From Bacteroidales bacterium (GTDB lineage Bacteria > Bacteroidota > Bacteroidia > Bacteroidales > WCHB1-69): DNA of 29,169 bases. Made by a program: the position numbers and the translations under genes. Positions 2,094 to 29,025 of the stretch are shown here, piece by piece (the stretch's first letter is position 1; every line of letters starts with the position of its first letter). The stretch spans positions 1-29,169 of the forward strand of contig JAISUP010000027.1 of NCBI GenBank assembly GCA_031272025.1, in the 5' to 3' direction. The notes below the pieces were generated by a model, which was given only the letters and a program-made list of their open reading frames with translations, was not told where the DNA came from and searched no databases.

Positions 2094-2423
2094 ATGAAAA
2101 ATCTCTACAGTGCAGTCATTCCATTCGACAATGGAAAAATGGGCATCAAGTATGCCATAGAAAATTTTGTTGGTTTTGACAAAATTTCAAAAATCATTTT
2201 GTGTTCCCAAAATGATACTGCCGTAAATAATTCCGAAAATCCAATTATTGTTATCGAAAGAAACAATAAAGACGAAATAATGGAATTGTTAGGCAAAATC
2301 AAAAACGAGACTGGTAATATTCCGGTTGAAGAACTAACACAAGAGCCAACCGTAATAGTTTTGGAACGACAAACAGGTTCCTTTATTACAGTTGAAGATG
2401 ACGGTAAATTTATTAACTATTAA
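2094..2423 (+). CDS. Hypothetical cytoplasmic protein (109 aa)
   Basis: ATG start 5 nt after the previous stop; no recognisable motif. The next gene starts 13 nt downstream. Confidence 0.4.
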   Translation: MKNLYSAVIPFDNGKMGIKYAIENFVGFDKISKIILCSQNDTAVNNSENPIIVIERNNKDEIMELLGKIKNETGNIPVEELTQEPTVIVLERQTGSFITVEDDGKFINY

Positions 2424-2436
2424 GAAAGGAATAATT

Positions 2437-3804
2437 ATGGGCTTTTTAGACGAATTAGAAAGAGGCTTTAAAAAAGGAATTAGAGAAGCAGAGCAAGACG
2501 CGAAACGCTCACGAGAAGCAGAAAGAAAACAGGAACTTTCTCGTGCTCATACAGTTTTGCATCAAATCATTCACAAATACACGGGTGTATTTGCTGTATC
2601 AAGTTATTCTGACTATCTTTATGTTGAAAAAGAGCCGTTAGAAAAAACTATTGAGGCTTTACACAACGACAATCAGCACAATCTTGCAAAAAAGTTAGAA
2701 TTGATGTATGATGATAGTAAAAATGTAGAGTATGACAAGGCTTTTGACATTTACAACATTTCGTATTTAAAAGATGTTGCGCCCTTATATGAAGGTAGAG
2801 CAAAAAAATATGATGGTAATAATGTTGCTGCTGCAACTGTTGCTAACAGCACAAAGAACGCATCGGAAAATGCCTTACATACAGGAAATGAACCAAAAGA
2901 AAAAGATACTCAATCTGCAAGGGCGCAGAACGGTTCTGTAGAAAAAAACATCCCGCCCAAAGTTCCTGAATTTTGCCCCAGTTGCGGCGCGAAAATTGAA
3001 AATTCACGAAGTTGTGAGTATTGCGGATGGTCTATGGATGGCGAGAGTAATGAAAACAAGCCCCCATTGAGCGATGATTCTTTTGTTTATCCCGGACTTG
3101 TCGATGCTCTGAATGAAAATATTCGGTTGCAAATAAAGCACAATGGAGGCAAATTTGTTGCTACGAATGTGGACTGTGATGGTTATATAGCACAATTTGT
3201 TGCTTCAAATCAGTTTACTAATCCGGATACTGGCAGTATAGTATTTCCTTCTGCCAAAAGTCCTTCCATTTCTGTTCGGTTTGATTTAGATAAAGAATCG
3301 CAAGAATTGTCGAAGTTTCAGCAGATGGATACTTTCTCTCTTTTTACACCAGCCGGTAATTGGGATAATGGTCCAGTGTATGCTGTTGATATTGGCGAAG
3401 ATGTTGTTGCAGCCGCGCAACTATATTCAAAAATTATGAAATATGCCTTTGGCTGTACAGGAGAAGAAACGTGCGAGTTCGATACTTGGTCAAATAAAGG
3501 AATTAAAGGCAGCAATAATGTCCCCGCTCATACCACTCAAAATACAGAAGGAATTAAAGGCAGCAATAATGCCCCCATTCATATCGCTCAAAATACAGGA
3601 GGTAAAAATTGGCTGACAACATTATTGTTGTGCCTTTTTCTTGGCTGGTTAGGCGTTCACAGGTTTTATACGAAGAACTACTTGGTTGGCGTGCTCCAAT
3701 TTTTTACATTTGGTTGCATCGGCTTATGGACACTGATTGATTTTATTTTGATTCTTGTTGGAAGTTACAAAGATGGCGACGGTCAATTTTTAGTTAAAAA
3801 TTAA
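2437..3804 (+). CDS. Membrane protein with three parts: a zinc-ribbon (CPSCG...CEYCGW), an uncharacterised ~150-aa domain shared with the downstream paralog, and a C-terminal TM2 domain. A 17-aa tandem repeat lies before the anchor.
   Basis: Trimmed to ATG 2437 (MGFLDELERG), which is preceded by aggaataatt. Zinc ribbon: CPSCGAKIENSRSCEYCG. The C-terminus NWLTTLLLCLFLGWLGVHRFYTKNYLVGVLQFFTFGCIGLWTLIDFILILVG matches the TM2 family signature. The shared domain YPGLVDALNENIRLQ...FGCTGEETCEFDTW aligns with the product of 3823-4575. Confidence 0.7.
   Translation: MGFLDELERGFKKGIREAEQDAKRSREAERKQELSRAHTVLHQIIHKYTGVFAVSSYSDYLYVEKEPLEKTIEALHNDNQHNLAKKLELMYDDSKNVEYDKAFDIYNISYLKDVAPLYEGRAKKYDGNNVAAATVANSTKNASENALHTGNEPKEKDTQSARAQNGSVEKNIPPKVPEFCPSCGAKIENSRSCEYCGWSMDGESNENKPPLSDDSFVYPGLVDALNENIRLQIKHNGGKFVATNVDCDGYIAQFVASNQFTNPDTGSIVFPSAKSPSISVRFDLDKESQELSKFQQMDTFSLFTPAGNWDNGPVYAVDIGEDVVAAAQLYSKIMKYAFGCTGEETCEFDTWSNKGIKGSNNVPAHTTQNTEGIKGSNNAPIHIAQNTGGKNWLTTLLLCLFLGWLGVHRFYTKNYLVGVLQFFTFGCIGLWTLIDFILILVGSYKDGDGQFLVKN
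3499..3600 (+). repeat. Intragenic 51-bp (17-aa) tandem duplication: GIKGSNNVPAHTTQNTE / GIKGSNNAPIHIAQNTG
   Basis: Unit ggaattaaaggcagcaataatg... starts at 3499 and again at 3550; about 44 of 51 nt are identical. It lies between the shared domain and the TM2 anchor. Confidence 0.8.
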
Positions 3805-4647: not shown

Positions 4648-4690
4648 ATCGTGATAATCAAATAAATCATCCAAAAATCACAGTTCAAAG
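4648..4690. repeat. Half copy (right arm, AATCA-repeat half ending AAAATCACAGTTCA) of the GTCTGAAC...GTTCAGAC palindromic element family
   Basis: gtgataatcaaataaatcatccaaaaatcacagttcaaagg matches the right half of the full copy at 27340-27432. Confidence 0.5.
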
Positions 4691-4726: not shown

Positions 4727-4852
4727 CGTTGCATATATCACTGATTAAGTGTTATTGATTTTTTAATTTAATACTTTAAAATTAAGCATTTTATATGAGA
4801 TATGCAATATTTTTTTAGAAATTTAAGTAAACGATATTGTTAAGGTTATAAT

Positions 4853-6841
4853 ATGCGTTCACATTGTGCTCTTGTTGATATAGATCCTTGGCTTAAGCCT
4901 TATGCCGCGAATTTGGAACGGCGGTATAGGCATGCTGTGCTCACCGGGTTGTTGCTAACCAATGGCGAGCAAACCTTGGGGGAATGGGCTAACTATCATT
5001 TATATTATGGGTTACATCATGATGCTAACGGGTGGGTTTTTCGCGAGAAAGCCCCGCATGCTCGTCGTGTTTTTTTATATGGCGATTTTTCGTCGTGGCA
5101 AATCGAAGATTGCTACGCACTTACCCCGTTGGGCAATGGCGATTGGGAATTACATTTGCCGTTCCATGCTTTAAAGCATGGCATGTTGTATAAAATGTGG
5201 ATAATCTGGGACGGGGGTAGCGATGAGCGATTGCCATCGTGTTGTACGCGGGTAGTACAAGACCCCGATACGCGTATTTTCTCGGCACAAGTATGGTTTC
5301 CCGAACAGCCCTACGCGTGGAAACATCCAAATCCACCTCGCCCGGCATTCCATTACATTTATGAGGCTCACCCCGGCATCGCCTCCGACCAACCTCTTGT
5401 GGCTACCTATCAATATTTTCGAAAAATGATATTGCCGCGTATTCATCAATTGGGTTACAATACTTTGCAACTCATGGCGGTGCAGGAACATCCATATTAT
5501 GGTTCTTTTGGCTATCAGGTATCCAATTTCTTTGCTCCCAGTTCGCGGTTTGGAACTCCTGAGGACCTGAAATGTCTGATTGATGAGGCTCATGGTTTGG
5601 GAATTGCCGTTTGGCTCGACCTTGTTCATTCTCATGCCGTGAGCAATGCCCGCGAAGGAATTGCCTACCTTGACGGTAGCGACAGTCTCTATTGTTACGC
5701 GGGAAAACAAGGACAGCACCCCGTGTGGAACTCCCGCTGCTTTAACTATGGAAAACCCGAAACCCTCGCCTTCCTGCTCTCTAATATCAAATATTGGCTA
5801 CACGAGTTTCGATTCGACGGGTTTCGTTTTGATGGTGTAACCAGTATGTGTTACCGTGACCACGGGATTGGGGTAAATTTTACGGATTACAAACAATATT
5901 TTGATGCACGAAACGTGGATAATGATGCCATTGCTTACCTAACCCTTGCCAATCAACTCGTGAAAGAACTCAATCCAACCGCGGTGAGTGTTGCCGAAGA
6001 CATGAGTGGTTTACCCGGTCTCGCGTTTCCGGTATCTTTGGGGGGAATAGGGTTTGATTACCGTATGGCAATGGGTATTCCTGACTATTGGGGAAAATTG
6101 ATTAAAGAATATCCTGACGAAACATGGTCTCCGGGGGACATTTATTTTCATCTCACCGACACGCGTCCCGAAGAACAAACCATCAGTTACGCGGAGAGCC
6201 ACGACCAAGCATTAGTAGGAGACAAGACTTTTATTTTTAGGATGATTGATAAAGAAATGTACGACAAAATGTCCATAGATATTCCTTCTTTACCCGTGGA
6301 TAGAGGTATGTCGTTACATAAGATTATACGGTTTCTCACACTAACCTTGGCACGAGGCGGCTACCTTAATTTCATGGGCAACGAGTTTGGACACCCCGAA
6401 TGGATTGATTTTCCTCGAGAAGGAAATCAATGGTCGTATAGTCATGCCCTAAGACGTTGGGACTTGGCAGATAACCCGCATCTTAAATATCGCTATCTGA
6501 AAAACTTTGACCAAGCCTTGTTACAAGCAACACAGCAGGTGTGTTTGTCGCGTACGTTGCCAAAACTATTGTGCGCGCACGAGCACGACAAAGTGTTGGC
6601 TTTCGAGCGAGCGGGGGGTGTTTTCGTGGTTAACCTAAATCCAACCTATTCATTTACAGACTATGAAATTCCTGCATCACAAGGCATATATGATCTTTTA
6701 TTGAATAGTGATGCTCCCGAATTTGGGGGTTTTTCCCGCCTCGCTACCGGACAAGAATTTCATTCATACAAACGACAGGACAATGATTATCTTAAATTGT
6801 ACTTACCTACGCGAACAGCCTTGTTGCTTTTCTCAAAATAA
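4853..6841 (+). CDS. glgB: 1,4-alpha-glucan branching enzyme (GH13, eukaryote-like GH13_8 type common in Bacteroidetes)
   Basis: Conserved GH13 branching-enzyme blocks: GWVFREKAPHA, FRFDGVTSMCY, GFDYRMAMGIPDYW, NEFGHPEWIDFP, AESHDQALVGDKT. Length 662 aa. Confidence 0.85.
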   Translation: MRSHCALVDIDPWLKPYAANLERRYRHAVLTGLLLTNGEQTLGEWANYHLYYGLHHDANGWVFREKAPHARRVFLYGDFSSWQIEDCYALTPLGNGDWELHLPFHALKHGMLYKMWIIWDGGSDERLPSCCTRVVQDPDTRIFSAQVWFPEQPYAWKHPNPPRPAFHYIYEAHPGIASDQPLVATYQYFRKMILPRIHQLGYNTLQLMAVQEHPYYGSFGYQVSNFFAPSSRFGTPEDLKCLIDEAHGLGIAVWLDLVHSHAVSNAREGIAYLDGSDSLYCYAGKQGQHPVWNSRCFNYGKPETLAFLLSNIKYWLHEFRFDGFRFDGVTSMCYRDHGIGVNFTDYKQYFDARNVDNDAIAYLTLANQLVKELNPTAVSVAEDMSGLPGLAFPVSLGGIGFDYRMAMGIPDYWGKLIKEYPDETWSPGDIYFHLTDTRPEEQTISYAESHDQALVGDKTFIFRMIDKEMYDKMSIDIPSLPVDRGMSLHKIIRFLTLTLARGGYLNFMGNEFGHPEWIDFPREGNQWSYSHALRRWDLADNPHLKYRYLKNFDQALLQATQQVCLSRTLPKLLCAHEHDKVLAFERAGGVFVVNLNPTYSFTDYEIPASQGIYDLLLNSDAPEFGGFSRLATGQEFHSYKRQDNDYLKLYLPTRTALLLFSK

Positions 6842-6880: not shown

Positions 6881-7960
6881 ATGAATAATTTATTGGAAAA
6901 GTTAGAGGCAATATACCAAAGATGGTTATCTATCGGGGAGGAAATTACACGTCCCGAATTGATGAACGACATGAAACGGTATATCAAACTCAACAAAGAC
7001 TACAAAGATTTGCAAGCGGTAGTAGATGCATATAAGTCGTACCGCAATATCTTGGAAAACATTGTCAATACCAAAGACATTATCGCGATTGAGAAAGACG
7101 ATGATTTTAGAGAAATGGCGAAGTCGGAATTAGATAATTTCATCACCGAGCGCGACAAATTAGAAGACGAGATACGGTTATTGCTTTTACCGTCTGATCC
7201 CCAGGATAGCAAAAATGCACAAGTAGAAATACGGGCAGGCACGGGGGGCGACGAAGCCAGTTTGTTCGCGGGCGACTTATTCCGTATGTATCAACATTAT
7301 TGCGACAAGAAGAATTGGAAAATAGAGACTGTCTCGATGACAGAGGGTACCGTAGGGGGATTTAAGGAGATTATTTTTAACATCACGGGAGAGAGCGTGT
7401 ATGGCATGATGAAATACGAGTCAGGGGTACATCGCGTACAGCGTGTTCCACAAACAGAGGCTCAAGGTCGCGTACATACCTCGGCCGCCTCTGTCGTAGT
7501 ATTGCCCGAAGCCGATGAGTTTGACGTAGAACTAAAACCATCAGACATCCGTAAAGATACATACTGCTCTTCCGGTCCCGGCGGGCAGTCGGTAAATACA
7601 ACATATTCTGCCGTGAGACTTACCCACATCCCTACCGGTATCGTAGTAGCCATTCAAGACGAAAAATCTCAACTCAAAAATCTCGACAAAGCCATGCATG
7701 TTTTGCGTAACCGTCTTTTTGAATTAGAATATAAAAAGTATCTTGACGAGGTAGCCTCAAAACGAAAAACTATGGTATCTACCGGAGACCGATCCGCGAA
7801 AATCCGAACTTACAACTACCCCCAAAATCGAATTACCGACCATCGTATTAATTTAACAAGTTATAACTTAACATCGTACATGGACGGCAATATTCAAGAA
7901 ATGATAGAAGCATTACAAGTCGCCGAAAATGCCGAGCGATTGAAAGAAGCCATAGAATAA
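6881..7960 (+). CDS. prfA: Peptide chain release factor 1
   Basis: GGQ motif (SSGPGGQSVNTTYSAVRLTHIPTGIVV). Block GVHRVQRVPQTEAQGRVHTSAASV aligns with the RF1 PxT region rather than RF2 SPF. 359 aa, RF1-like N-terminus. Confidence 0.85.
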   Translation: MNNLLEKLEAIYQRWLSIGEEITRPELMNDMKRYIKLNKDYKDLQAVVDAYKSYRNILENIVNTKDIIAIEKDDDFREMAKSELDNFITERDKLEDEIRLLLLPSDPQDSKNAQVEIRAGTGGDEASLFAGDLFRMYQHYCDKKNWKIETVSMTEGTVGGFKEIIFNITGESVYGMMKYESGVHRVQRVPQTEAQGRVHTSAASVVVLPEADEFDVELKPSDIRKDTYCSSGPGGQSVNTTYSAVRLTHIPTGIVVAIQDEKSQLKNLDKAMHVLRNRLFELEYKKYLDEVASKRKTMVSTGDRSAKIRTYNYPQNRITDHRINLTSYNLTSYMDGNIQEMIEALQVAENAERLKEAIE

Positions 7961-24258: not shown

Positions 24259-26889
24259 TTATTTCACGTCAAAAGTCGCGCTAACGGCTTCATCTTCAGA
24301 ATGCGTTCCCGCGAAGATGCTGTATTTTCCCGCGGGGACTACTTGTTTTCCTGCGGCATTGTCCCATTTGGCTAACGCGGAAACAGGAATGCTCACTTTC
24401 AACGAATAGTTACCCCCTTGAGCAATATTTTTCCGGTCAAAAAAGCGTAACTCTTTTAACGGTAACATTCTTTGTCCATCTTGGGGATATTTGATATAGA
24501 CTTGCGTAACCGCATCGCCCTCGCGATTGCCGGTATTTTTTACCGTGAGCACACATTCTATCGTTTCTTCAGGGGCATAAGATGTCTTGGGTTGTTTTTC
24601 CCATTCATAATTGAAAGTAGTATAAGACAGTCCAAAGCCAAAAGGATACAAAGCTTTGCCGGTAAAATATTTATAGGTCCGGTTTTTCATCGAGTAGTCT
24701 AAGAAATCGGGCAAATCTTTGTCATTTTCGTAGAAAGTAACGGGCAAATGACCTGAGGGGTTGATATTTCCCAGTATCAGGTCAGCGATAGCGTCTCCGG
24801 CGAATTCGCCCCCGTACCATGCCTCTACGATAGCATTCAGGTTACGGGCTTCCCAAGGCAATGCCATCGCGCAGCCGTTCATGAGAACTAATATAACCGG
24901 TTTTCCTGTATTTTTCAATGCTTTTAGGATATCGGTTTGCACTTTTGGTAAGAGCATGGTGGTACGGTCTCCCCCTTTGAAGCCGGGCAAATCCACGCCC
25001 ATTTCTTCGCCTTCCAAACGCGGGGAGATGCCTCCCAAGAACACGATAACATCGGCATCTTTCACTTTTTCGGCAACCAAAGAAGCGGGTATTGCCTTTA
25101 CCGAAGCCAATTGCAGAGCAATACGACCGCCACCAAGTTTTCCTTGACGATGCTCTAACTTAATATGGTATTCTTTTCCTTTGATTAAAGTAGTACGATA
25201 TTTAGCATCGGAAGCCACGTCGTGATTCCATACCGATTCAGATACTTTCTTGTGATCAATGAATAAGCGATAGGCATCATCGTAAGCAATTTTAAAATCT
25301 ACCGTCCCCGATACCGGGGCGATAAAACTACCTTCAAAACGAGTGGAATAGTCTTGAAGATTAACTCCTTTCGCGATGGGGTTTGCATCGCCTCCGGAAG
25401 TAAAGTCTATGTTTTTCGTGGTCGCGGTATAAACAGGTTTGCCTTCCAAATGGTCGTTATTAAAACAAGACATGGCAAAGCCGTCTCCGGTAACGAGATT
25501 TTCGAGGTGTAAGTCTTCCCAAACTTCGTTTTCGGTATAATTACAGCCTTGTTCCGCGATAATTTCCACGTTTGGCAATAATGCTTTCAAACTATTTAAT
25601 GGGGTTTTGGCGAGTTTGGGGTAGCCGGTATAATTGCCCAATTGCATTTCAGGGTTATCCATGTTGGGACCCATGATAGCGATTTTTTTCAAATTTTCTT
25701 TTTTAAGCGGCAATATCCCGTCATTTTTTAAGAGAACCATAGATTCGCGAGCCATTTTCAGGGCTTGTGCTTTGTGGTCTGCATGATTACAAATGGACGT
25801 ATCTATTTTAGCATAAATGTCTTGTTCTATGGGGTCGAACATACCGAGACGGAAACGAATGGTAAAGAGACGTTTGAGGGATATGTCAATTTGGGACTCG
25901 GAAATCAGTCCTTTTTCTACCGCCTCTTTTAGCCCGCGATAGGCTTCGTTTCCGCAATCAACATCGGTACCATGATAGACGGCATCGGCGGCGGCGGCAG
26001 GGGCATCGGGTTTGTATTTATGCGTTTTATAAAAATTGTCAATCGCGCCACAATCTGAGGTTACGTATCCGGTAAATTTCCAATCTTCGCGCAAGATGTC
26101 TAACATAAGATGGTCGCTACCGCAGCAAGGTTGTCCTTCATAGGCATTGTAAGCGCACATTACTCCCGCGACTTTGGATTGGGTTACCAATTCTTGGAAA
26201 GCCGGTAAATAGGTATCCCATAAGTCGTACATAGATATATTTTTAGCGTCAAAGACATGACGCAAGGGTTCGGGACCGCTATGGACAGCATAATGTTTGG
26301 CACAAGCGGCGACTTTCAGTTTCACGGGGTCGGTTCCTTGCAATCCCTTAACGAAAGCAGAGCCTATTTGGGCGGTAAGGAAGGGATCTTCGCCATAGGT
26401 TTCTTGTCCCCGTCCCCAACGCGGGTCACGAAAAATGTTGATATTTGGAGACCAGAAAGTAAGCCCGTGTCCTATCCCCATCACGCTGTCTCTTCTCGAC
26501 ACGTTGTATATCGCCCTGCCTTCTAACGCGATATAGTCGCACATCTGTCTTACCGCAGACGTATCCCAGGTGGCTGCCAACCCTATTGCCTGTGGAAAAA
26601 CCGTAACATGATAATTTTTCATGCTTACCCCTACTCCATGCAATGCCTCACTCCACCAATTGTACTCAGGGATCCCCAAACGCTCAATTGCCGGTGCCCC
26701 ATTGAGCATTTGATCAATCTTCTCTTCTAAGGTAAGACGTGCAACCAAATCCGCCGCACGCTCTTCCGGCGACAATGCCGGATTTTGAAACGGGTATGTG
26801 TATGTTGCCGCTTCTTTTGGCTTGTTACCACAACTCGCGAAAAACAATAGGCATGCTACCACACCCATGAAAATGAAATTTTTTCTCAT
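24259..26889 (-). CDS. Glycoside hydrolase family 3 beta-glucosidase/beta-xylosidase-type enzyme with an inserted PA14 domain and C-terminal FnIII-like domain; lipoprotein signal
   Basis: Lipobox MRKNFIFMGVVACLLFFASCG. GH3 blocks WSPNINIFRDPRWGRGQETYGEDP, KHYAVHSGPE, GYVTSDCGAID. PA14-like segment STRFEGSFIAPVSGTVDFKIAYDDAYRLFIDHK. 876 aa. Confidence 0.85.
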   Translation of the reverse strand: MRKNFIFMGVVACLLFFASCGNKPKEAATYTYPFQNPALSPEERAADLVARLTLEEKIDQMLNGAPAIERLGIPEYNWWSEALHGVGVSMKNYHVTVFPQAIGLAATWDTSAVRQMCDYIALEGRAIYNVSRRDSVMGIGHGLTFWSPNINIFRDPRWGRGQETYGEDPFLTAQIGSAFVKGLQGTDPVKLKVAACAKHYAVHSGPEPLRHVFDAKNISMYDLWDTYLPAFQELVTQSKVAGVMCAYNAYEGQPCCGSDHLMLDILREDWKFTGYVTSDCGAIDNFYKTHKYKPDAPAAAADAVYHGTDVDCGNEAYRGLKEAVEKGLISESQIDISLKRLFTIRFRLGMFDPIEQDIYAKIDTSICNHADHKAQALKMARESMVLLKNDGILPLKKENLKKIAIMGPNMDNPEMQLGNYTGYPKLAKTPLNSLKALLPNVEIIAEQGCNYTENEVWEDLHLENLVTGDGFAMSCFNNDHLEGKPVYTATTKNIDFTSGGDANPIAKGVNLQDYSTRFEGSFIAPVSGTVDFKIAYDDAYRLFIDHKKVSESVWNHDVASDAKYRTTLIKGKEYHIKLEHRQGKLGGGRIALQLASVKAIPASLVAEKVKDADVIVFLGGISPRLEGEEMGVDLPGFKGGDRTTMLLPKVQTDILKALKNTGKPVILVLMNGCAMALPWEARNLNAIVEAWYGGEFAGDAIADLILGNINPSGHLPVTFYENDKDLPDFLDYSMKNRTYKYFTGKALYPFGFGLSYTTFNYEWEKQPKTSYAPEETIECVLTVKNTGNREGDAVTQVYIKYPQDGQRMLPLKELRFFDRKNIAQGGNYSLKVSIPVSALAKWDNAAGKQVVPAGKYSIFAGTHSEDEAVSATFDVK

Positions 26890-26957: not shown

Positions 26958-26965
26958 CAAATTTA
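26958..26965 (-). promoter_or_regulatory. Minus-strand TAAATTTG -7 motif (CAAATTTA on +) about 69 bp upstream of the GH3 ATG. A second candidate is TATTTTTG at 26995-27002.
   Basis: Reverse complement matches TAnnTTTG in the AT-rich leader. Confidence 0.35.
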
Positions 26966-27035
26966 CTAATATTTTCCGAGATACACACAAACTCCAAAAA
27001 TACGAATTAGTTTTGAAAAAAAAAAATGCGTTATT

Positions 27036-27088
27036 GTCTGAACCACGATTTTCATAAGATTTTCTTGATTGCCAAGATTTTTTCAGCA
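27036..27088. repeat. Half copy (left arm GTCTGAACCACGATTTT plus GATT repeats) of the palindromic element family, upstream of the GH3 gene
   Basis: gtctgaaccacgattttcataagattttcttgattgccaagatttttt. No right arm follows. Confidence 0.5.
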
Positions 27089-27120
27089 CACGGATATATT
27101 GCACTCGACAATAAAATTTT

Positions 27121-27200
27121 CTTCGTGTAACTTCGAGGTTCTTCGTGAACCTTCGTGTAATTATTTTAGCTACACGAAGTTACACAAAGAAGGCACGAAT
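27121..27200. repeat. Exact 10-bp periodic repeat array: 4 direct units CTTCGTGTAA-like, a 10-bp spacer, then 3 inverted units TTACACGAAG-like
   Basis: cttcgtgtaa|cttcgaggtt|cttcgtgaac|cttcgtgtaa|ttattttagc|tacacgaagt|tacacaaaga|aggcacgaat. Unit starts fall at 27121/31/41/51 and 27171/81/91. Confidence 0.75.
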
Positions 27201-27258
27201 AACCACAGAGAGTTACAAAAGTAAAAAGTGAAAAATATTTTCGCGTTAATTTGCGGAC

Positions 27259-27295
27259 AAAAAAAAACAGGCAACGACACCACCGCTGCCTGTTT
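27259..27295 (-). terminator. Rho-independent terminator for the minus-strand T9SS cargo gene (stem acaggca / tgcctgt, followed on the minus strand by a T9 run). A second 8-bp hairpin lies at 27312-27333.
   Basis: aaaaaaaaacaggcaacgacaccaccgctgcctgttt: on the minus strand this reads GC-rich stem-loop then UUUUUUUUU. The atcgcggg/cccgcgat hairpin lies just before it. Confidence 0.6.
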
Positions 27296-27339
27296 CTCTT
27301 TCTTTGCCGTCATCGCGGGACCTAACCCGCGATCCCCTT

Positions 27340-27432
27340 GTCTGAACTGTGATTTTCGTATGATTGAGGTGATTACTATGATTTTAAAAATCACACAAAT
27401 CAAATGAATCACTCTAAAATCACAGTTCAGAC
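27340..27432. repeat. Full copy of the ~93-bp imperfect palindromic element with 17-bp perfect terminal inverted repeats GTCTGAACTGTGATTTT, abutting the stop codon of the T9SS cargo gene
   Basis: gtctgaactgtgattttcgtatgattgaggtgattactatgattttaaaaatcacacaaatcaaatgaatcactctaaaatcacagttcagac. The halves are roughly mirror images (GATT/AATC repeats). It ends 3 nt before the TAA at 27436. Confidence 0.8.
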
Positions 27433-27435
27433 GAA

Positions 27436-28677
27436 TTATTCCTTCACCACCTTCACGCCCGCGCTTGCCGTGCCGTTTTCCACGATGCGCAGAATGTAGG
27501 TGCCTTGCGCGAGGTGCGCGATATTGATGGTTTCCCGTAGAGACGTGGCGTGCCGCGTCTCTACAACGCGACCTGACAAATCGAACAGCGCGAGCGTTCC
27601 GTTGGCGGCGCGTTCCAATTCCACGTTCAACTCGTTTTTCGCGGGATTGGGATAAACTTTCATCGGCGCGGCTGCTTGAACGCTACGTATGCCCGTTTCG
27701 GTGCAGGTAGCAAAATTTGCCGTGAAAGTAGTGTCGCTTGCAACATTGACTGTGCGCGGATTGTCGAGATTGCCGTCTGCCCAGCCGAGAAAGACAACGC
27801 CGCCTTTGGGCAAGGCAAGCAATGTGATATTACCGCTGTGATTTGCCGAAGTATTGTCGGGCGTGGTGGTTACAAAGCCGCAACCCGCAAAACTGTAAGC
27901 GTGTCCTTTGGATACATCGCTCGAAAGTACCGTTAAGGTGTTCAAACATTCGGCTTCTACAAGATTGGCAGTTGTCCAAAATACCACATTACTCCCGTAA
28001 GTAAGGTCTCTATTCCAATACTGCGGATAATTTGTCATCGAGAGTTCAAACAATTCCCTTGTTCCACAGGGAATAATGATTTTTGTAGTTGTCGGGTTAT
28101 TGCCAAATGTTTGTTGTTGATTACCATAGGTATTGCCTGTTGCCAAATTATAAAAAATGGCTGTTCCTTTGAAAATAACGCTGTCTAATGGGTAACCTTG
28201 AAACGCTTCCCCTCCAAAATACTGATAATATTCCCCAAATGTTACTTTGGTTAAATTGGGAAATTGTCCGGTCCCAGAAGGAGTTGCATTAAAGGACTGA
28301 AATTGTCGCATAAAGCGTGGCAAAACAAGTTCTGTCAGGTTACTGAAAACATAGCCATCATTATAACCTTCGCCGTGAATTACACCGCCATACAGACGAT
28401 AGGTAACGCCGTTGCCATCAACAACAGTTTCGGGTAAAACCCATTTTGTCAATCCAGCAGGGGCGGAAATAATGATGTTTGCCAAACTGACCGTTTGCAT
28501 TGTTACGCCATCGGGAAAAGTAACGCCGCTATTACCGTCAACTTGGTAAGTCGCCGTCACACCGCTTGCATCGGTGTAATTGAATGTTTGTGCCATCGCG
28601 CTGCTCGAAAGAGCGATTACTGCGAGGAGGGCTGTTGTTTTTGCCACGTTCCTCAAAAAAATACTTTTTGATAACAT
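27436..28677 (-). CDS. Secreted T9SS cargo protein (T9SS C-terminal sorting domain; N-terminal domain unassigned)
   Basis: Trimmed to ATG 28677, giving the signal peptide MLSKSIFLRNVAKTTALLAVIALSSSAMAQ. C-terminal KVYPNPAKNELNVELERAANGTLALFDLSGRVV...GTYILRIVENG matches the T9SS CTD. Marked GC shift between the 5' two-thirds (AT-rich) and the 3' ~500 bp (GC-rich). Confidence 0.65.
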   Translation of the reverse strand: MLSKSIFLRNVAKTTALLAVIALSSSAMAQTFNYTDASGVTATYQVDGNSGVTFPDGVTMQTVSLANIIISAPAGLTKWVLPETVVDGNGVTYRLYGGVIHGEGYNDGYVFSNLTELVLPRFMRQFQSFNATPSGTGQFPNLTKVTFGEYYQYFGGEAFQGYPLDSVIFKGTAIFYNLATGNTYGNQQQTFGNNPTTTKIIIPCGTRELFELSMTNYPQYWNRDLTYGSNVVFWTTANLVEAECLNTLTVLSSDVSKGHAYSFAGCGFVTTTPDNTSANHSGNITLLALPKGGVVFLGWADGNLDNPRTVNVASDTTFTANFATCTETGIRSVQAAAPMKVYPNPAKNELNVELERAANGTLALFDLSGRVVETRHATSLRETINIAHLAQGTYILRIVENGTASAGVKVVKE

Positions 28678-28693
28678 AAAAATAAAAATTTGT

Positions 28694-28745
28694 GTCTGAA
28701 CTTTGATTTTCAAATGATTGTTTTGATGTTTTTGATTGAAAACCA
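28694..28745. repeat. Half copy (left arm GTCTGAACTTTGATTTT plus GATT repeats) of the palindromic element, 17 bp upstream of the T9SS gene ATG
   Basis: gtctgaactttgattttcaaatgattgttttgatgtttttgattgaaaacc. Confidence 0.5.
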
Positions 28746-28934
28746 TTGTCTTCGACGGTTAATATTGAATTTAGAATAACTTTCTGTGTTAGGGGATTGC
28801 GGCTTTGGCTTACGCCGATTTTCAATTCGCCGCAATGACGGTGGAACAGGCGGGGATTGCGGTGTAGGGGCGCGATTAATCGCACACGCCCCAAACCTGT
28901 CAGGTTTTCAAAACCTAACAGGTTTAAATTGAGA

Positions 28935-29025
28935 GTCTGAACTGTGATTTTACTATGATTACAATGATTGATATGATTTTTAATCACAGCAATCAAAAAA
29001 ATCAAGCGAAAATCAAGGTTCAGAC
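28935..29025. repeat. Second full copy of the palindromic element (left arm GTCTGAACTGTGATTTT, right arm AAAATCAAGGTTCAGAC)
   Basis: gtctgaactgtgattttactatgattacaatgattgatatgatttttaatcacagcaatcaaaaaaatcaagcgaaaatcaaggttcagac. Confidence 0.75.

Follow-up and report, generated by a model that had tools for sequence, protein, structure and literature searches.

Is a row of short, regularly spaced repeats in front of a metabolic gene an operator of that gene, or can it have a different origin? The question arises at a locus of a metagenome-assembled genome (MAG) labelled 'Bacteroidales bacterium', on a contig that was analyzed over its complete length of 29,169 bp (hereafter the window) and is the only contig of the host genome examined. 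Upstream of a GH3 beta-glucosidase gene, heptamers of the type CTTCGTG recur about once per helical turn and are followed by their inverted counterparts. The first-pass annotation of this DNA took the array for a site bound cooperatively by a response regulator or another DNA-binding protein. We find instead that it belongs to a family of hairpin repeats of about 100 bp that occurs in many phyla, typically bracketing genes for GxxExxY proteins, and that it therefore has the appearance of selfish DNA, not of a switch dedicated to GH3. In the reading that we favor, with a probability of roughly 0.7, the window array is a solo copy of this widespread family, the GxxExxY gene and its repeat arms form a compact selfish cassette that has moved between phyla, and the heptamers are cis-acting sites of the GxxExxY protein.

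The array and the hairpin family

The array consists of a direct arm, a short loop and an inverted arm (Table 1). The four direct units and their exact 10-bp period, as initially described, are confirmed; the inverted arm, for which three units had been listed, holds a fourth (CACAGAG), and its steps are 10, 11 and 10 bp, a 1-nt shift that had been masked by reading the units in decamer frames. The four-unit phased pattern matches once in the window, even when two mismatches are allowed, and never in 100 dinucleotide shuffles. The earlier proposal that the two halves can pair is also borne out, the array region folding as a long hairpin with z-scores of -4.2 (minus strand) and -3.8 (plus strand). 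Tandem Repeats Finder (score 30) makes no call at the array, because neighboring units are only 60-80% alike.

The same design recurs far beyond the window. A pattern that describes only the architecture (CTTCGTGNNNCTTCGTGN{8,30}CACGAAG, a phased pair of direct units with an inverted unit 8-30 nt away) was found on more than 120 JGI metagenome contigs and on one IMG/VR contig; the counts from these large collections are lower bounds and taxonomically unbalanced. Every match extends into a palindrome of 3+3 or 4+4 heptamers, each arm being a row of three or four heptamers of the CTYYRYG type that lie 2-4 nt apart. The variants CTTCGTG, CTCTGTG, CTTTGTG, CTTTGCG, CTTCATG and CTCTGCG all fit this consensus. 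At least three classes can be distinguished by the number and spacing of the units: class I is GC-rich, with 3+3 units at a spacing of 10-9 (TTTCCTTCGTGnnCCTTCGTGTCCTTnGTGGTT-loop-AACCACGAAGGACACGAAGGnnCACGAAGGAAA); class II is AT-rich, with 4+4 units at 10-11-10; and a third class has 3+3 units at 10-10. Across the family the spacing ranges from 8 to 11 bp, so the argument that the units sit on one face of the helix is weak.

We defined class II as four direct and four inverted CTYYRYG/CRYRRAG units at 10-11-10 around an A/T-rich loop of 10-30 nt, about 100 bp in all. The window copy is laid out in this way, down to the GAAGAAGGCAC spacer at the center of its inverted arm. A covariance model (R1), built from 16 class II copies at other loci with the window excluded, matches the window on both strands at 27116-27215 and over its full length (model positions 1-100 of 100), with 73 and 72.5 bits (E = 5e-16 and 7e-16). 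The full-length match and the shared architecture place the window array in the class II family. The copy carries three degenerate units (CTTCGAG, CACAAAG and CACGAAT) and a left arm 1 bp short of the consensus; since the consensus is 10-11-10 on both arms, the 10-10-10 steps of the left arm are a peculiarity of this copy. Pairing in class II is confined to the heptamers; these do not co-vary but are invariant, and the spacers that separate them are non-complementary.

The window element does not resemble several better-known classes of repeat. It is not a CRISPR array, as had been recognized, being palindromic and made of 7-nt units with 2-4-nt spacers. Its ends (TTTTCTTCGTG... and ...CACAGAGAG) are without the GTAG or CGTC tag of repetitive extragenic palindromes (REPs). 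Rfam gives no match at the gathering score for the element, only sub-threshold matches to generic hairpins (microRNA precursors, E 0.1-9), and a BLASTN search with positions 27030-27440 gave nothing beyond chance matches of 26-39 nt in the plasmids of PLSDB and the phages of INPHARED. Our literature searches found no description of the repeats or of GxxExxY function, which does not prove that none exists. Two looser patterns were set aside: a degenerate four-unit pattern (TTYGWG x4) had 99 viral matches, mostly unrelated tandem repeats, and a three-unit direct pattern, which mixed half elements with unrelated 10-bp tandem repeats, was kept as a lead only.

Family copies adjoin genes without a common function, among them xseA/xseB, sdhA/sdhB, thiolase/acyl-CoA dehydrogenase and cargo genes of the type IX secretion system (T9SS). 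Where a solo element has a called gene on both sides, the two genes are co-directional in 38 of 52 cases (73%), the underlying calls being crude (stop-to-stop open reading frames, ORFs, of at least 100-120 amino acids). At locus L200, two solo copies (4736-4889 and 7405-7558) are 97% identical over 154 nt, and their paralogous flanks are 76% identical.

The family also takes more elaborate forms. Head-to-tail tandem hairpins with periods of 105 bp and 127 bp occur at L137 (8001-8249), L170 and L196 (4367-4672), the last directly in front of a GxxExxY gene. In five loci with 62-67% GC (L134, L209, L213, L223 and L227), a short CTTCGTG hairpin (10-9-13-9-10) is nested inside a conserved palindrome, CTAGAGCGGTTTGCGATCGGAT...GCTCTCACC, and looks like part of a composite repeat. 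Half elements (TTTTCCTTTGTGATCCTTCGTGACCCTTCGTGGTGAA) lie immediately upstream of divergent ORF starts on phage contigs from IMG/VR (L004, L008, L012 and L016), where they supply a Shine-Dalgarno-like end, GAAGGAAA, on the strand of the gene.

Linkage to GxxExxY genes

An all-versus-all comparison of the ORFs in the pattern-selected loci identified their most recurrent neighbor as a protein of about 123 amino acids, which matches TIGR04256 ('GxxExxY protein') and Pfam PDDEXK_3 (E about 1e-40) and has the PD-(D/E)XK nuclease fold. A profile search found it in 11 of 121 such loci (746 kb), every time abutting the elements. Because these loci had been picked by the repeat, we performed the reverse test on 85 loci selected by the protein alone, which cover more than 10 phyla; 80 of them come from GTDB genomes, including that of a Methanophagaceae archaeon. 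Phased arms bracket the gene in Bacteroidales, Ignavibacteria, Planctomycetes, Desulfobacterota, Chloroflexota, Acidobacteriota and one archaeon. The linkage is oriented: within 50 bp upstream of the genes of this protein-selected set there are 58 inverted-type and 16 direct-type units, and within 50 bp downstream 87 direct-type and 18 inverted-type units. Exact 6-mers repeated at 9-11 bp reach a density of 11.3 per kb within 200 bp of the gene, compared with 3.0 per kb in the other non-ORF DNA of the same loci and 1.4 per kb in ORFs.

In the commonest layout, III(I)-gene-DDD(D), the inverted units precede the start codon and the direct units follow right after the stop. Fuller cassettes have a complete direct-loop-inverted hairpin on each side of the gene, and R1 finds full hairpins abutting it in loci that were not used for training (L240-248, L252, L255, L260, L290 and L318). 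In MAGs of Bacteroidales and Prevotellaceae, the cassette is wedged between xseA and xseB or between sdhA and sdhB. At the former site the number of class II hairpins on both sides varies among assemblies with an identical protein. At the latter, the gene is preceded by three CACGAAG units, the last of which stops 2 nt short of the ATG; on the other side, a run of four CTTCGTG units sets in at the stop codon and passes into two complete hairpins. Cassettes are oriented as the surrounding operon genes. A Prevotellaceae MAG encodes one with CTTCGTG arms (MDR0872420.1); a similar accession prefix and Logan run series (MDR1757777.1 and SRR147109xx for the window) suggest that it may come from the same study as the window. 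Hairpins were also found beside an internally deleted GxxExxY gene (L130) and a truncated one (L218). Two viral contigs carry GxxExxY genes, both with phased-heptamer arms, one of the CTTCGTG type and the other of a different heptamer. At L237 (1100-2007), the gene lies between palindromes of a different phased heptamer (ATCAGCG / CGCAGAT), so the design is broader than CTYYRYG.

The arms co-vary with each other and with the protein. The two arms of a gene share the same heptamer type with a frequency of 0.55, against 0.19 under random pairing (0 of 5000 shuffles), and proteins with a shared heptamer variant are 62.1% identical, against 57.4% otherwise (0 of 2000 label shuffles). Nearest neighbors among the proteins cross taxonomic boundaries: a Planctomycete protein groups with one from Desulfobacteraceae and a Prevotellaceae protein with one from Melioribacter, both pairs carrying CTTCGTG, and the archaeal protein shares 82.5% identity with one from Anaerolineales, both carrying CTC(T/A)GCG. 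The Bacteroidales, a single order, host several heptamer variants. Since arms and protein co-vary across taxa in this way, the gene and its arms move as a unit.

The nuclease residues D...ExK do not vary in either of our GxxExxY alignments. PADLOC reports a weak Cas4 match, and the protein has no sequence relative in the PDB and no PHROG match. It is abundant: at least 7,975 relatives were found among 8,000 candidates scored, and at least 592 of 600 genome stretches examined encode a GxxExxY/PDDEXK_3 protein. The function of PDDEXK_3 is listed as unknown, and multiple transfers between divisions have been described (PMC3424549).

Genomic setting of the window copy

The array lies in the 546-bp spacer between the GH3 gene and a gene whose product has a C-terminal sorting domain of the T9SS type (the T9SS-tail gene), both of which have the minus strand as their sense strand (Table 1). 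On that strand, the order is the T9SS-tail stop codon, a 93-bp palindrome of an unrelated repeat (element A, see below), a small GC hairpin, the terminator, the CTTCGTG hairpin, half an element A, the putative GH3 promoter and the GH3 ATG. The array had been placed past the terminator of the T9SS-tail gene and about 230-310 bp upstream of the GH3 ATG; this position is confirmed, at 232-311 bp from the ATG at 26889. Two transcription units thus flank the hairpin, and the distance from it down to the putative -33/-7 promoter of GH3, which was recognized by eye, is about 150-250 bp; the Bacteroidetes promoter consensus is TTTG/TAnnTTTG. No regulator gene adjoins the array in the gene annotation of the window. 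The window carries other carbohydrate-active and TonB-dependent receptor genes; R1 finds a single copy of the array in it.

Table 1. Positions of the array, its units and neighboring features in the window
Feature	Position	Strand	Remarks
Direct arm, whole	27121..27157	+	4 units at exact 10-10-10 steps; read from sequence
Direct unit 1, CTTCGTG	27121-27127	+	
Direct unit 2, CTTCGAG	27131-27137	+	
Direct unit 3, CTTCGTG	27141-27147	+	
Direct unit 4, CTTCGTG	27151-27157	+	
Loop TAATTATTTTAGCTA	27158..27172		15 nt; aligns with family loop (..TAAnAAAAtcc../..AAGGATTTTTTGTTA..)
Inverted arm, whole	27173..27210	+	4 units at 10-11-10 steps; central GAAGAAGGCAC spacer of the family
Inverted unit 1, CACGAAG	27173-27179	+	
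Inverted unit 2, CACAAAG	27183-27189	+	
Inverted unit 3, CACGAAT	27194-27200	+	
Inverted unit 4, CACAGAG	27204-27210	+	CACAGAG/CTCTGTG is a frequent family variant
Whole class II phased-heptamer hairpin, solo, gene-less	about 27116..27215		R1 model match and fold z-scores
GH3 beta-glucosidase gene	24259..26889	-	Pfam Glyco_hydro_3, Glyco_hydro_3_C, PA14, Fn3-like; neighbor, outside the element
T9SS C-terminal sorting-domain protein gene	27436..28746	-	Pfam Por_Secre_tail; upstream neighbor
Intrinsic terminator of T9SS-tail gene	27259..27301	-	Hairpin and T-run
Putative Bacteroidetes-type GH3 promoter	26958..26991	-	-33 TTTG 26991..26988, 22 nt, -7 TAAATTTG 26965..26958; by eye
Element A, full palindromes	27340-27432, 28935-29025		
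Element A, half copies	27034-27081, 28694-28745, 4674-4690		

The GH3 protein is 100% identical to MDR1757777.1 ('Bacteroidales bacterium' MAG), and its next-nearest homologs, from termite-gut-type Bacteroidales, are 63% identical. The sole other contig with the same GH3 gene, from Logan, ends 160 bp upstream of the ATG, at 27049, inside a half copy of element A. An exact look-up of the T9SS-tail protein gave no match. The longest ORF of the T9SS-tail gene, starting at 28746, runs through another half copy of element A, and translation probably begins at the in-frame ATG at 28677 (MLSKSIFLRNVA...).

Class II solo elements lie 160-300 bp downstream of Por_Secre_tail genes at two paralogues of L200 and in the window. 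An association of the element with T9SS cargo was considered and rejected, being inconsistent in L122, L136 and L142; the proximity may just reflect the commonness of such genes in these genomes.

Element A is a second dispersed palindrome, unrelated in sequence to the CTTCGTG family (GTCTGAAC-N3-GATTTT ... AAAATC-N3-GTTCAGAC). It contains about four TGATT and four AATCA units at roughly 9-11 bp, the same phased-hairpin design with another unit. Its pattern matches seven times in the window, against 0.39 expected, and is absent from the searched viral contigs and from every locus that we fetched. Other repeats in the window include a REP-like GC-rich palindrome, GTAGAGACGTGGCGTGCCGCGTCTCTAC, at 27537-27564 within the coding C-terminal sorting domain of the T9SS-tail gene; hairpins of the types GGGGATTGCGG... 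and GTAGGGGCGCGATTAATCGCACACGCCCC upstream of that gene (28780-28930); a small hairpin, ATCGCGGG-ACCTAA-CCCGCGAT, at 27312-27333; and a 51-bp tandem repeat at 3497-3602 (2.1 copies, 89% matches) within the ORF of a TM2-domain protein (2392-3804).

Competing explanations and significance

Under the selfish-cassette reading, the heptamers would be the binding sites of the GxxExxY protein, which would act on the hairpin, a cruciform or the paired ends and thereby move or maintain its cassette. Solo hairpins could then be mobilized in trans, as REPINs (hairpins formed by REPs) are by RAYTs (REP-associated tyrosine transposases) and miniature inverted-repeat transposable elements (MITEs) by the parent transposase, or be left behind after loss of the gene. 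If the element influences GH3 expression at all, this would follow incidentally from its having landed between the upstream terminator and the GH3 promoter. A further generalization, which we put forward tentatively and consider less probable than its negation, is that GxxExxY (PDDEXK_3) proteins are the nucleases or 'transposases' of unrecognized minimal mobile elements whose ends are phased CTYYRYG rows, and which may spread among bacterial phyla and archaea, settle in operons and seed gene-less hairpins.

Several observations weigh against this account. A GxxExxY profile run against the six-frame translation of the 29-kb window with filters off found neither a gene nor a remnant; the window copy is therefore a solo element. 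We know of no GxxExxY protein for which binding, cleavage or transposition has been demonstrated, and the structure model of the protein is poor, with a predicted local distance difference test (pLDDT) score of 51. No empty site was found and inspection by eye revealed no target-site duplication at class II flanks, so that we can only infer the mobility of solo copies. The linkage between gene and repeat is frequent, not universal: of 80 protein-selected loci, only 33 have five or more exact phased 6-mer positions at a distance of up to 300 bp from the gene and, with the looser CTYYRYG unit, 52 of 85 have at least three phased units. The complementarity of the arms is equally expected for a stem in RNA or in DNA. 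Finally, solo copies are ordered direct-loop-inverted and the minimal cassette inverted-gene-direct, so a simple internal deletion of the latter does not yield the former; the solo form corresponds better to a single complete hairpin of the pair that encloses the gene in fuller cassettes.

Several known systems combine some of these properties. REPs are simple palindromes of 20-40 bp with a GTAG or CGTC tag (PMC3733652). The family described here resembles the REP/REPIN-RAYT system in that short extragenic palindromes are dispersed in genomes, flank a small cognate gene, co-vary with its protein and are more numerous without the gene than with it. It differs in its partner, a PD-(D/E)XK protein instead of the HUH/Y1 transposase fold of RAYTs, in arms made of three or four phased heptamers without such a tag, in the span of one heptamer family over many phyla and one archaeon, and in a gene that is often multi-copy and located inside operons.

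Insertion sequences (ISs), transposons and MITEs can carry multiple subterminal transposase-binding repeats, as in the ends of Tn7, Mu and IS21-type elements. The inverted ends with several short repeated sites, putatively bound by a protein here, and the gene-less derivatives are common to both. However, the GxxExxY cassette, of about 0.5-0.7 kb, has no DDE, serine or tyrosine transposase and no visible target-site duplication, and the arm order of its solo form corresponds to abutted ends or to a full flanking hairpin, not to an internal deletion. Small selfish ORFs are also known as free-standing homing endonuclease genes, of which some encode a PD-(D/E)XK fold (I-Ssp6803I), and from intervening sequences of 23S rRNA, where S23p/four-helix-bundle ORFs are flanked by RNase III stems. 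Like them, the GxxExxY gene is wedged into conserved genes or transcripts, bracketed by inverted repeats, patchily distributed and horizontally transferred; unlike them, it has heptamer-array flanks and neither an intron or intervening-sequence context nor a defined homing site.

Among the alternatives, the one that survives best is a role at the RNA level, which we nevertheless hold to be unlikely. The active form would be the transcript, through either its hairpin or a stem in which the 5' arm pairs with the 3' arm across the GxxExxY ORF. This structure could be an RNase III site that excises the ORF from the operon mRNA, much as RNase III cuts 23S rRNA at intervening sequences that bear ORFs, or a stem that stabilizes the mRNA or masks translation. 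Folding is strong for either strand and the arms remain complementary across heptamer variants, but it is the heptamer sequence itself that is conserved, class II contains 0 compensatory pairs, and the spacers form internal loops. Some hairpins even keep unlike arms (CTCTGTG x4 against CACGAAG x4), with one mismatch and one wobble per unit. The shared orientation of cassettes and operon genes, the predominance of co-directional genes around two-sided solo elements and the position of the last inverted unit (GAAGGAAA) at the Shine-Dalgarno site in GC-rich classes would all suit an element of the transcript, but no Rfam family matches. For the window copy, this explanation would mean a structured RNA or an attenuator in read-through or leader transcripts. 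The attenuator, which the first-pass annotation had offered as an option, fits poorly: a GC-rich stem followed by a U-run is lacking, and the array is flanked as TTTT-hairpin-AAAG on either strand, a polarity opposite to that of an intrinsic terminator. Lying between a good terminator and the likely GH3 promoter, the copy may also be poorly transcribed. The conservation of the heptamers, the non-complementary spacers and the unlike-armed hairpins favor recognition by a protein over a purely structural stem, although a function in RNA, for instance the excision of the inserted ORF by RNase III, could coexist with it.

It is quite improbable that the window copy is an inert relic, that is, the decayed flank of a former GxxExxY cassette with neither activity of its own nor mobilization in trans. 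The hairpins beside damaged genes at L130 and L218 suggest that such decay can take place, and the degenerate units and shorter left arm of the window copy could be read in the same sense. However, no trace of a gene lies within several hundred bp of it, and at 73 bits its hairpin scores higher than the gene-adjacent copies of L240-248 (about 60 bits). Nor would inert flanks be expected to form the tandem arrays of whole hairpins seen at L137, L170 and L196, or to be as similar to each other as the L200 solo copies are within their more divergent surroundings.

The operator hypothesis, in which a response regulator or other transcription factor binds the array cooperatively and controls the GH3 gene, is the least probable of all: OmpR/PhoB-type regulators do bind direct repeats phased by 10-11 bp, and the array offers such repeats in non-coding DNA upstream of GH3, along with GTTACA-like motifs in its right arm, but the same architecture adjoins functionally unrelated genes in many phyla rather than a regulon, always has an inverted second arm, varies in spacing, has no second copy in the window, stands far from the putative promoter with half a copy of element A in between, and is linked to a nuclease-like gene and not to a regulator. 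The first-pass annotation had named uniqueness to this spot as the observation that would speak against it. Literally, the array is not unique, as the other contigs attest, but its dispersal and its link to a nuclease-like gene argue for a selfish repeat rather than a regulon.

The array should thus not be annotated as a GH3 operator or taken as evidence for a glycoside-responsive regulon. The interest lies at the level of the family, the individual locus being ordinary. Linkage to GxxExxY genes defines an easily recognized repeat family, which probably causes contig breaks and false small ORFs (with translations such as HEGHEG and FVSFV) in metagenome assemblies of many phyla. That the linkage is tight, oriented and co-varying leads to a testable hypothesis, namely that the cassette is maintained or moved by a nuclease of its own, specific for sequence or structure. 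If this is true, the system would be a PD-(D/E)XK counterpart of RAYTs and REPINs; it would account for a frequent cause of broken assemblies and spurious small ORFs, and it would give a function to a very large family of proteins of 'unknown function'.

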